From a virus (Duplodnaviria > Heunggongvirae > Uroviricota > Caudoviricetes): a stretch of DNA of 14,999 bases. The stretch is taken from IMG/VR virus record IMGVR_UViG_2563366959_000014, one strand, 5' to 3'. A program made the translations under genes and the position numbers. Shown piece by piece: positions 6,320 to 12,445 of the stretch (position 1 is its first letter; every line of letters starts with the position of its first letter). The notes under the pieces are model-generated. The model saw only the letters and a list, made by a program, of their open reading frames with translations. It was not told the origin of the DNA and did not search any database.

Positions 6320-6344
6320 AATTTTTTTCACCCATAAAACACTA

Positions 6345-6364
6345 AAGGGGCTTTTTAGCCCCTT
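6345..6364 (-). terminator. Stem-loop between capsid and protease genes (possible partial terminator or attenuator)
   Basis: AAGGGGC / GCCCCTT 7-bp stem with a 6-nt loop, 10 nt after the capsid stop, followed on the minus strand by a moderately U-rich stretch. Confidence 0.35.
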
Positions 6365-6374
6365 CTGTATGCTG

Positions 6375-7532
6375 TTAATCGTCGTCCTGTGGCAGTTCCA
6401 GAATCTTGATCGCGTTCGAATCCACCACGCCACCGCCTAAATATTTCTGCGTGAAAATTTTGATGAATCCTGGTTCTGTCAGGTTGTCCGGTCTGGTGCG
6501 AACACCCGTTTCGTGATCAACAATGTAGTAACCGCGTTTGAAGTCACCCAGGGCAATAACGTTATCCGGCATAAACTCCAGATATTCGACCGGAAGGCCC
6601 AGCAACGTATCAGGATCACCAGCCTGTAAACGGTCGCGCCAGATGTAATCACCGTTCGCGTTCTTCACCTTCTGAAGTTTTGCCGCCGTCGTGGAGTTAA
6701 CCACCCAGACCGCGTTTTTGCGGTATTTTTTACGTAATGCAAATTTCAGGTCGATCAGCGGGTCCGCAGATGTCCACGCAAGAGACTCAGAAGGCTTAAT
6801 TACCTGCAACGTACCAAAATCACGCTCTTTGTCGTTCTTCTCTGCACGGGGTACGGATAAAAAGCCTTTTGCTTTTTTGTCACCGTCGCCCACAACCAGA
6901 TCGCTTTCTTCGATTTCCGTGAAGGTGTCGCCAATCTCGCCCGTCAGCCATGAAAGGATGTCCACATCGGAAAAATCCACGATTTCCTGTGTGGTGCGCG
7001 GGTACGCATAGACCGGATACAGCTTAATGCTCACCTCGTTAATCTGCGGGGTGCTGGTCTGTTCGCGTGACTTACCCTCTTCACCGTGGTTAACGGTCGC
7101 ACCGCCAGCGGAAACAAGCTGCTTAAACTCGTTGCTGCTGATTTTCTTCACGGTACAGATGCGGCGCATGGTGGATTCATCCGCCAGCATTCGCATGATT
7201 TCGGTGTTCAGTTCAGGGATAACGGTATAACCACCATCAGCGGGGACACCTGTACTTAATGCGCGGGTTTCACCTGTCAGGATGTAGTTGCGGAGTTCTG
7301 CCGGGTCAGTGGTCTGGCTGCTTTTACCTGGCTTGCTGCGATCTTCGTCTGCAATGGCTTCAAGGCGGGAAATGTCTTTATCGAGGGATTCAGCTTTAGC
7401 GCGTAATTCGTCAAATTTTGCGCCCTCTGCATCGTTAAGGCTGCGGTTTTCTTTTTCCGCGTTCTCCAGCATGTCGCGCATCTGATTTTTAATGGCGGTT
7501 TTCTGCTGGCGTAATTCGATTATTCTCGGCAT
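6375..7532 (-). CDS. Major capsid protein, HK97 fold
   Basis: 385 aa from the ATG at 7532 (MPRIIELRQQ); N-terminal coiled-coil-like delta-domain region followed by a capsid-like body; directly upstream of protease and portal. Confidence 0.9.
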   Translation of the reverse strand: MPRIIELRQQKTAIKNQMRDMLENAEKENRSLNDAEGAKFDELRAKAESLDKDISRLEAIADEDRSKPGKSSQTTDPAELRNYILTGETRALSTGVPADGGYTVIPELNTEIMRMLADESTMRRICTVKKISSNEFKQLVSAGGATVNHGEEGKSREQTSTPQINEVSIKLYPVYAYPRTTQEIVDFSDVDILSWLTGEIGDTFTEIEESDLVVGDGDKKAKGFLSVPRAEKNDKERDFGTLQVIKPSESLAWTSADPLIDLKFALRKKYRKNAVWVVNSTTAAKLQKVKNANGDYIWRDRLQAGDPDTLLGLPVEYLEFMPDNVIALGDFKRGYYIVDHETGVRTRPDNLTEPGFIKIFTQKYLGGGVVDSNAIKILELPQDDD

Positions 7533-7540
7533 AAAAAAAA

Positions 7541-7570
7541 GTCCTGGGGTTAAGTAAGGAACTCCAGGAC
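7541..7570 (-). promoter_or_regulatory. Stem-loop followed by U8, immediately 5' of the capsid start codon
   Basis: GTCCTGG / CCAGGAC stem with a 16-nt loop, then eight T on the minus strand running straight into the capsid ATG; the only AGGA-like Shine-Dalgarno lies in the 3' stem arm. Confidence 0.3.
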
Positions 7571-7748
7571 GCGGCAAAAACTCAACCGTTTTTCATAAGG
7601 AAATCAGCAATCGCACCGATCGTTTTCCCGCCTGGTAATGAATATTGGTGAGCACATTAACAGGCGGGAAAGTGGCCCCAGCGTCCTGGCACCACTGGCG
7701 AGAATAATCATGATTCAGGGCGGGTAAAATATGCCGATCCGGTCAATG

Positions 7749-7773
7749 AACAACGTGGAACGACCACGAACAA
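7749..7773 (+). promoter_or_regulatory. Copy B of the composite direct-repeat site (AACAACGTGGAACGACCACGAACAA)
   Basis: Exact 13-mer shared with 252-264 and 13702-13714; about 215 bp upstream of the capsid operon start. Confidence 0.4.
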
Positions 7774-7790
7774 ATAATTTACAAAAAATT

Positions 7791-7814
7791 ACAAAAAGCC
7801 GGATTGCTCCGGCT
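7791..7814 (-). terminator. Rho-independent terminator (minus strand)
   Basis: AGCCGGA / TCCGGCT stem, 4-nt loop, followed on the minus strand by TTTTTGT; 10 nt after the stop of the 74-aa gene. Confidence 0.7.
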
Positions 7815-7824
7815 GTATGGGTGC

Positions 7825-8049
7825 TCAGTCCCTGATCCCTTTCAGAAATTCTATCAATGCATCTATCTGTTCAGGATTTACTGCCAGCATTTCACCGGAT
7901 AGAGCACATCTCACAAAACCATGCTGATCCTTTTCAATCAGTGCGCCCGTCTCCAGGAATGCGCGGTAATCATTGATGTTCATCGTCTCCATGTTGTCAG
8001 CATGGTATTTATCACGCTGTTTTAATATCTCATCAAATTTCATCGGCAT
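7825..8049 (-). CDS. Hypothetical protein (74 aa), moron-like cargo
   Basis: ATG at 8049 with AGAGGA Shine-Dalgarno; AT-rich relative to neighbours; bracketed by two near-identical terminator hairpins. No family recognised. Confidence 0.6.
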   Translation of the reverse strand: MPMKFDEILKQRDKYHADNMETMNINDYRAFLETGALIEKDQHGFVRCALSGEMLAVNPEQIDALIEFLKGIRD

Positions 8050-8144: not shown

Positions 8145-8168
8145 AAAAAAAGCCGGATTTCTCCGGCT
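8145..8168 (-). terminator. Rho-independent terminator (minus strand), near-duplicate of 7791-7814
   Basis: AGCCGGA / TCCGGCT stem with a T-run on the minus strand; 6 nt after the PerC-like stop. Confidence 0.7.
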
Positions 8169-9466: not shown

Positions 9467-9700
9467 AACCCTTCACCTGTTCACCTTTTGATATTTTATC
9501 TTTTAATTCATAATGTTAAGGGGTGAACAGTTTCACAAAAACTATTCACCAACTGTTCACCACTGTTCACCCTTGAAGCTCAATAAACAATCAAAAAGGT
9601 GAACAGTGAATAGTTTGGTGAACAGTTCATAAATAACTGTTCACCCTATAATATACTGATATAAAAGATATTTATGACAGGGTGAACAGTGGTGAACAGT
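9467..9700. repeat. Replication origin: about ten GGTGAACAG / CTGTTCACC iterons in both orientations within an AT-rich segment
   Basis: Iteron copies at 9478-9485, 9522-9530, 9543-9550, 9553-9561, 9563-9571, 9598-9606, 9617-9625, 9638-9646, 9681-9689 and 9691-9699; the segment lies directly 3' of the primase gene. Confidence 0.75.
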
Positions 9701-12153: not shown

Positions 12154-12349
12154 GGCACACCCCCTGACGAATACGGGCGGCGAATACCATCACGCAGCCA
12201 GCCGGGGATTGCTGGCGTGCTTCCTGTTCGCTGCTGGCCTCAATGGTAATCACGCGCGGTTGTGCCGTGCTCAGGGCGATAAAACGCCAGATGTATTTAT
12301 TCAGGTTGTGCGAGTCCCGCCCTTGCGGGTGTGTGGTATGATTTCTCAT
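12146..12349 (-). CDS. Hypothetical protein (67 aa), first gene of the minus-strand replication operon
   Basis: ATG at 12349 with GAGGT Shine-Dalgarno at 4-nt spacing; this is the C-terminal 67 codons of a longer spurious ORF. Weak support. Confidence 0.4.
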   Translation of the reverse strand: MRNHTTHPQGRDSHNLNKYIWRFIALSTAQPRVITIEASSEQEARQQSPAGCVMVFAARIRQGVCHD

Positions 12350-12445
12350 AGCTACCTCGATACTTTCGCTATCGTTGGTGGTTAGAAGCCCGGTTAGTGT
12401 TAGCGCACTGCCGGGTTTCGTCGTTTCTGCACCTTGCGCCAACAA

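Follow-up and report, generated by a model that had tools for sequence, protein, structure and literature searches.

In the immunity system of the phage satellite P4, the seqB segment of the CI RNA pairs with seqA or seqC to cause premature termination, which takes place in trans after RNA processing, and in translational operators such as the MS2 replicase operator and the RNA thermometers it is the Shine-Dalgarno (SD) sequence that is sequestered. For the capsid-forming PICIs (cf-PICIs) EcCIEDL933 and KpCIDSM30104, tail-less, DNA-filled capsids have been reported without helper induction; resident prophages were induced in the EcCIEDL933 experiment, and the KpCIDSM30104 capsids form in a non-lysogen (whichever leader type that island carries). 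Helper phages are known (HK106 and HK446), and induction of the island depends on the island's own AlpA. Neither a promoter nor a terminator of the packaging operon is mentioned in the cf-PICI literature searched. In lambdoid phages, the late promoter PR' is constitutive and gives a short terminated RNA until Q arrives, and the StxS/6S RNA spans the 258 nt from PR' to the terminator tR' (PMC7547250); for EHEC Sakai, both Term-seq and dRNA-seq data are available (the latter as GEO GSE143631).

The window, a viral DNA stretch of 14,999 nt (IMG/VR record IMGVR_UViG_2563366959_000014), is a cf-PICI of the EcCIEDL933 type. It carries int, alpA, a replication module and genes for capsid, protease, portal, connectors, HNH, TerS and TerL, has neither tail nor lysis genes, and matches EcCIEDL933 in gene layout; the insertion site here is tqsA. 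All genes lie on the minus strand in the order integrase, AlpA, small repressor-like gene, DUF4222, primase, SSB, PerC-family gene, p74 and packaging genes, the last running capsid, prohead protease, portal, head-closure protein, connector, HNH, TerS and TerL. An 801-bp query comprising the PerC-family gene, p74, the leader and the capsid start matches 679 of 5,426 complete E. coli genomes. Whereas in HK97 the capsid gene comes third (portal, protease, capsid), in this island it leads the operon. A strong terminator-like hairpin with a 9-bp stem (6344-6365, minus strand) stands right after the capsid stop codon, so that the capsid gene is bracketed by hairpins; its first position and the flanking hairpins may set the ratio of capsid to downstream proteins. 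The features on which the following account relies are these:

6375-7532, minus strand: HK97-type major capsid gene (PF05065, E = 5e-61), leading the packaging operon
7533-7540, minus strand: U8 tract, filling the gap between stem and start codon (T7 in many relatives)
7541-7570, minus strand: terminal hairpin, with 5' arm GUCCUGG (7570-7564), 16-nt loop and 3' arm CCAGGAC (7547-7541)
7542-7545, minus strand: AGGA inside the 3' arm, 9 nt from the ATG
7564-7572, minus strand: segment C, GCGUCCUGG, comprising the 5' arm and 2 further nt, able to pair with the 3' arm or with H1
7602-7621, minus strand: small hairpin H3, from folding and alignment, within an insertion unique to the window-type, L168 and L060 lineages
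7624-7671, minus strand: long hairpin H2, UUUCCCGCCUG...CAGGCGGGAAA, with a variable tip
7672-7695, minus strand: hairpin H1, GUGGUGCCAGGACGCUGGGGCCAC, with loop GACG, containing segment A, CCAGGACGC (7689-7681)
7533-7738, minus strand: 206-nt 5' leader, with the inferred transcription start (A at 7738) at one end and the U tract at the other
7701-7728, minus strand: sigma-70-like pattern (TTTACC, 16 nt, TATTCT) inside the leader, a candidate second promoter
7745-7796, minus strand: promoter region P1, placed relative to the EDL933 start site
7797-7814, minus strand: intrinsic-terminator-like hairpin after the p74 gene, from a terminator scan
7825-8049, minus strand: p74, a small acidic 74-aa protein (phrog_1957) encoded upstream of the leader

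The capsid ATG (7532-7530) opens a 385-aa ORF, and PGAP places the same start on identical E. coli sequence. Just before it, the minus strand from 7580 to 7530 reads UUUUUGCCGC-GUCCUGG-AGUUCCUUACUUAACC-CCAGGAC-UUUUUUUU-AUG, with GCCGC directly 5' of the first arm, which bears out the first-pass annotation's description of a stem-loop, eight U and then the capsid start codon. The stem has 7 bp, of which five are G/C pairs, the U8 abuts it without a gap, and a 3-bp inner helix forms within the 16-nt loop. The folding energy of the hairpin is -14.1 kcal/mol (z = -2.5; five of 200 shuffles fold as well), and a pattern demanding a perfect 7-bp stem with at least four G/C pairs, 3-20 nt of loop and a following run of seven or more T occurs once in the window and anywhere at all in only one of 500 dinucleotide shuffles. 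A G/C-rich stem with an immediate run of 7-9 U is what is expected of an intrinsic terminator, as is an active promoter upstream on the same strand, which is present (see below); the loop departs from the usual 3-8 nt, having 16 nt in the window and 10-12 nt in L060, and a standard terminator scan passed over the site because it limits loops to 8 nt. The earlier observation that the only SD-like string lies inside the stem also holds, AGGA at 7545-7542 in the 3' arm being the sole one in the 20 nt before the capsid ATG. As there are zero bases between the U tract and the ATG, no room is left for a promoter, and every capsid mRNA must traverse the hairpin. Close relatives have T7 or T8 at this point, the sole lengths found within the window-type lineage; as this polymorphism shifts the frame, the in-frame TTG at 7577 is not a start codon.

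A start site is available from a close relative, since the island of EDL933 (E. coli O157:H7) is 95-99% identical. Table S5 of the published EDL933 Cappable-seq study gives one gene-specific start for the island capsid gene, at 1,687,918, detected in seven of eight culture conditions, none with induction (PMC10469882). The capsid ATG of EDL933 being at 1,688,124, this start lies 206 nt upstream of it, and it transfers to the A at 7738 in the homologous window sequence. The published start is thus located upstream of the hairpin and not downstream of it, the point on which the first-pass annotation had asked for transcript ends to be placed, and the hairpin accordingly ends a constitutively transcribed leader, a position that makes a role as terminator or as gate on the ribosome-binding site (RBS) plausible. 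Upstream of the start, region P1 holds a motif found family-wide, TTTTGTAAATTAT (7786-7774), which continues into TTGTTC at the -35 position (7773-7768); the -10 position is occupied by TTCATT (7750-7745), a poor match, and TTGTAA/TTGTTC direct repeats recur every ~11 nt across P1. No convincing match to the sigma-54, sigma-E or sigma-32 consensus was seen by eye upstream of the mapped start.

The repeats invite comment in their own right. A conserved 20-nt motif, TTTTGTAAATTATTTGTTCG, and the TTGTTC-like repeats after it together cover the -46, -35, spacer and -10 regions of the mapped promoter (7745-7796, minus strand), form the only such cluster in the window and look like a site array for a DNA-binding protein, activator or repressor; no further copies of the promoter motif were found elsewhere in the window, for example at alpA. 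An origin of the repeats in Rep/primase iterons was rejected because EDL933, with a different replication protein and TAACCCGCA iterons, keeps the same promoter repeats. The window's own iterons consist of about eleven copies of CTGTTCACC in both orientations just past the primase gene (9470-9700, minus strand), presumably the island replication origin; it is at this same place that EDL933 has its different replication protein and its TAACCCGCA copies.

Within the leader, the sigma-70-like element at 7701-7728 conforms to a family pattern, TTTac..N16..TAT.tT (spacer N16-17), whose columns are conserved at 90% or more and whose end is 6 nt short of H1; in its second hexamer, the T, A and last T are at least 90% conserved, a typical -10 signature. 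This element may be a second, perhaps inducible promoter, in which case the leader would begin at H1 for some transcripts; the EDL933 Cappable-seq tables consulted report no start site for it. On the other side of P1, the hairpin at 7797-7814 would insulate the leader promoter from upstream transcription. A near-identical terminator-like hairpin lies 354 nt away at 8151-8168 (minus strand), the two reading AGCCGGAG[A/C]AATCCGGCU followed by a T run and standing after p74 and the PerC-family gene, respectively, which suggests that a cassette was duplicated or inserted along with its terminator. In L003, L157 and related loci, the stretch from the motif to the sigma-70-like pattern, ~150-200 nt upstream of the capsid ATG, is replaced by another terminator-like hairpin, CCCCUGUCUCUGACGGGGG followed by a U run, whose stem shows compensatory changes between loci; promoters in that group therefore seem to be arranged differently.

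As judged by alignment and covariation, the leader belongs to a conserved family of structured RNAs that precedes the capsid genes of cf-PICIs in about 30 lineages and is previously undescribed, being absent from Rfam and from the cf-PICI literature searched. A scan of IMG/VR with the promoter motif returned 120 stretches, 69 of which are followed, after about 150-200 nt, by a capsid homologue 60-99% identical to that of the window; the other 51 are unrelated, except for one truncated cf-PICI. The set was extended with relatives found in species-representative genomes (Rosenbergiella, Citrobacter, Erwinia and Gilliamella) and by a second pattern scan, and the alignment comprises 29 representative leaders after removal of near-duplicates. 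Across these 29 leaders, H1 is a 9-bp hairpin with an invariant GACG loop, double changes in six of its nine pairs and 98.9% of cells paired, and H2 shows compensatory double changes in all ten pairs. Overall, 92% of cells are paired, none of 500 shuffles reaches the covariation score, and sliding the partner columns collapses it. A covariance model matches the window at 7697-7530 (54 bits, E = 1.5e-13) and finds exactly one match in each of 61 cf-PICI loci, out of 100 loci searched, with zero in unrelated loci. An Rfam search of the whole window, of the leader alone and of a majority-type leader gave nothing near a gathering score, blastn of the leader against 50,697 phage records turned up nothing beyond chance matches of 40 nt in Enterococcus phages, and a metagenome scan with the H1 15-mer gave two true leaders among the 120 matches listed, both window-type. 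H1 is nearly invariant even between lineages that share only about 60% capsid identity, which suggests that it has a partner. The family could be added to annotation pipelines and could serve as a marker for cf-PICI packaging operons.

Two further features of the leader may be mentioned here. A leader peptide from the ATG at 7711 (35 codons here, about 10 in majority lineages) was considered and rejected because the start codon is absent in several lineages and neither stop nor length is conserved. Over 11 nt, the leader segment GAUUAUUCUCG (7699-7709) is perfectly complementary to capsid codons 2-5, CGAGAAUAAUC (7518-7528, minus strand); a fold of the whole intergenic region pairs GAUUAUUCUCG with CGAGAAUAAUC, and the complementarity is reduced to 8 nt in EDL933 and to 7 nt in L060. 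This pairing may add to start-site masking or be due to chance.

H1 and the terminal hairpin are linked by a competing helix. Segment A within H1 is the exact 9-nt reverse complement of segment C (7572-7564), the counterpart of this A:C pairing being AGACGUGA with UCACGUCU in the majority lineages and G(A/G)CGGGA with UCCCGUC in two others. No sequence leaves the core, GACG:CGUC, unpaired (in one lineage it is GGCG, with a G-U pair), five core pairs reach 100% pairing over the 29 leaders, and column pair 17-158 occurs as UA 24 times, CG three times and GC twice and is never unpaired. The covariation score of A:C exceeds all 500 shuffles and all slid controls, although no more than two or three independent events among the lineages (window-type; L221/L116) account for the changes; the leader thus has the mutually exclusive, covarying helix expected of an attenuator, from few independent events. 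In folds of the growing transcript, A:C is the minimum-energy structure as long as the 5' arm is present and the 3' arm absent. In folds of the full leader, H1 plus the terminal hairpin is favoured over A:C by about 8 kcal/mol, except that in L060, with its weak H1, the full-length minimum is the open A:C form. The AGGA is computed to be paired in the minimum-energy leader fold and free in the A:C fold, as expected of an SD gate. On these models, A:C pairing would open the terminal hairpin, and the leader has the anatomy of a two-state switch.

Comparison among lineages separates what is general in the last hairpin from what is local. Every lineage has a last hairpin that holds a purine tract just upstream of the AUG. 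In the majority lineages it reads GGUUUC...GAAACC, followed by 3-8 nt (e.g., ACUCC) and the AUG, without a U tract, and the only purine tract (GGAAAC or GAGAAAC) sits in the 3' arm and adjoining bases. The U tract is confined to two E. coli lineages, the window type and L060, the latter found in two complete genomes, both with arms GUCCUG(G)/(C)CAGGAC and a spacer of U7-8. Over the last 181 nt these lineages share only 75-76% identity. Yet they agree at all 26 positions of the final 12 nt of the 5' side, the 6-nt 3' arm and the U8, compared with seven of 17 in the stretch between the arms. Selection has therefore held the arms and the U run and not the loop, and U7-8 abutting a G/C-rich stem is kept in all 26 window-type variants as well as in L060; together with the shuffle tests, these figures show the structure to be non-random and under selection. 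Because the U tract is missing in most lineages, the family-wide role of the leader cannot be intrinsic termination, and any termination component is lineage-specific at best.

The reading tentatively preferred here, at a probability that we would place somewhat short of even, is that the leader acts as a leaky attenuator and RBS gate with a built-in anti-terminator, termination being a prediction of the model. The hairpin would be the expression platform at the 3' end of the constitutive ~206-nt leader of the cf-PICI packaging operon, into which an always-on promoter would feed polymerase. In the closed form, with H1 and the terminal hairpin folded, the only SD-like sequence would be buried, and in this E. 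coli lineage the U7-8 would make a fraction of polymerases stop just before the start codon, so that the products would be an RNA of ~206 nt released before the AUG and a read-through mRNA with its SD buried. In the open form, segment A (CCAGGACGC) would pair with the 5' arm (GCGUCCUGG); no hairpin would form, transcription would go on and the SD would be free. We infer that termination takes place, that the two folds interconvert in vivo and that their balance can shift; at a guess, it would be set by kinetic partitioning during transcription, with the 16-nt loop delaying the arrival of the 3' arm, and possibly biased by an island-encoded factor recognizing the nearly invariant H1. The outcome would be a throttle on capsid and the rest of the operon downstream of an always-on promoter, and the spontaneous, helper-independent capsids reported for cf-PICIs fit an always-on promoter with a leaky gate. 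Against this proposal count the loop, which at 16 nt is larger than that of a typical intrinsic terminator, the poor -10 element TTCATT and the internal sigma-70-like pattern. A conserved leader, a constitutive start and a hairpin that would both stop polymerase and hide the RBS offer a mutable handle on capsid timing and amount. A more elaborate version, which we regard as decidedly unlikely, would make the leader a bistable riboregulator in which the GACG loop is a toehold for invasion of H1 by the 5' arm, an H1-binding factor from island, helper or host decides whether polymerase stops one nt before the AUG, and the stopped RNA accumulates as a satellite small RNA with a trans function of its own, comparable to StxS or the P4 CI RNA; were this true, it would be the switch behind the "spontaneous" production of tail-less capsids by cf-PICIs.

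The leaky attenuator and RBS gate must be weighed against simpler and more familiar arrangements. The hairpin could be an element of translation or stability only, masking or presenting the SD, with the U run as an A/U-rich site for ribosomal protein S1 or as a standby site and polymerase reading through essentially always. The U-less homologous hairpins, which keep the purine tract in their 3' arm 3-8 nt from the AUG, the location of the U run exactly at the spacer position and a 16-nt loop atypical for terminators all speak for such an element; it is nevertheless judged unlikely, given that a perfect U7-8 abutting a G/C-rich stem has been kept in 26 window-type variants and L060 and that a hairpin of -14 kcal/mol over the SD would nearly silence a gene requiring high expression, so that an opening mechanism would be needed anyway. 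Alternatively, the terminated leader could itself be the product, a stable small RNA of ~206 nt acting in trans like StxS or the P4 CI RNA, with capsid control secondary. A constitutive leader start, a hairpin with a U run of the kind that typically forms the 3' end of Hfq-binding small RNAs, the precedent of StxS in the same bacteria and the near-invariance of the H1 sequence across lineages would suit this explanation, which is all the same quite improbable: most lineages have no U tract and hence no release of a discrete RNA, the published list of Hfq-bound sRNAs in EHEC has no entry for the island, and no target is known. That the hairpin merely terminates transcription arriving from upstream, or arose by chance and plays no part in capsid control, is extremely improbable; the region is indeed rich in such signals, with two more terminator-like hairpins upstream (8168-8151 and 7814-7797), yet these already insulate it, the mapped promoter lies between them and the terminal hairpin, and chance is ruled out by the shuffle pattern test, the covariation and the conservation in L060.

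There is finally the proposal, raised by the first-pass annotation, of a conditional terminator read through only with an antiterminator, possibly helper-supplied; it is taken here as a processive factor of the lambda Q kind, encoded by a helper or a prophage, that would modify RNA polymerase at the leader promoter. The layout does mirror that of the lambdoid PR'-tR' unit, with an always-active promoter, a non-coding leader of ~200 nt and a hairpin and U tract before the first late or morphogenesis gene, and a short RNA is expected in uninduced cells in both; the resemblance is a structural one. Moreover, both U-tract lineages have a -10-like TATTTT at +8 to +13, the location expected of a sigma-dependent pause element, helper phages are known, and the induced resident prophages in the helper-free EDL933 capsid experiment leave room for a prophage factor. 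In contrast to lambdoid phages, however, neither a Q gene nor a known Q-binding element, shared with a supplying phage, was identified; antiterminator families gave no match to the window ORFs scanned (a set without the integrase, the primase and several small ORFs); and neither the non-cf-PICI phage contigs nor the 50,697 phage records contained the conserved promoter motif. The cf-PICI hairpin also differs in that it abuts the start codon and contains the SD, the U tract is missing from most family members, which leaves them no terminator to antiterminate, and the leader carries an alternative, covarying anti-terminator pairing of its own. Capsids have been reported without helper induction, those of KpCIDSM30104 in a non-lysogen (whichever leader type is present there), and it is island AlpA that island induction needs. 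Antitermination by a Q-like factor is hence improbable. The terminator-or-gate part of the original interpretation thus stays plausible, with a start 206 nt upstream and all capsid mRNA passing through the hairpin, while its coupling of capsid production to helper infection found no positive support; the U-less relatives, the built-in anti-terminator, the absence of the motif from non-cf-PICI phage contigs and the capsids reported without helper induction count against it.

In kind, then, the leader would belong to the class of attenuators and RBS gates, as a new member. With attenuators and riboswitch platforms it shares mutually exclusive A:C and C:D helices, covariation in H1 and A:C, an SD in the 3' arm of the putative terminator and a fold that varies with transcript length, whereas it has no conserved leader peptide, recognizable aptamer or Rfam match. 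It resembles P4 in that a phage satellite would control its own transcription by RNA-RNA complementarity within a leader; the P4 pairing, however, causes termination in trans, while that of cf-PICIs would prevent it, most simply in cis, and the sequences are unrelated. As in SD-sequestering operators, a stable hairpin adjacent to the AUG carries the ribosome-binding purine tract in its 3' arm, and does so in every lineage, but the cf-PICI hairpin has no known bound repressor and has, in addition, the U tract seen here and a long-range competitor helix.

Among the genes nearby, p74 is a candidate trans factor. About two thirds of the representative loci have its gene ahead of the leader, and 34 diverged homologues occur in the cf-PICI loci examined; it had no match in Pfam or NCBIfam, and a homologue search returned near-identical proteins only. 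A single-sequence AlphaFold model of p74 reached a pLDDT of 58, and a profile search against PDB sequences gave a weak match (E = 0.008), which covers a stretch within the N-terminal portion of the nicking endonuclease N.BspD6I. The PerC-family gene was set aside as a regulator: no lineages but the window type and L060 have it, so that it is not a family-wide partner, and the PerC-like protein of EcCIEDL933 has been reported to have no effect on LEE1.

Elsewhere in the island, Rfam gave a sub-threshold match to the SymR antitoxin RNA at 12350-12422 on the plus strand (33 bits against a gathering score of 61), opposite in strand to the island genes and just upstream of the start of the small Icd-like/repressor-like gene (ATG at 12349, minus strand). 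The Cappable-seq table also contains three start sites for alpA of the EDL933 island (L286 880-897, upstream of alpA), at least one of which, 1681887 in EDL933, was seen in several uninduced conditions, though alpA has been described as helper-induced.
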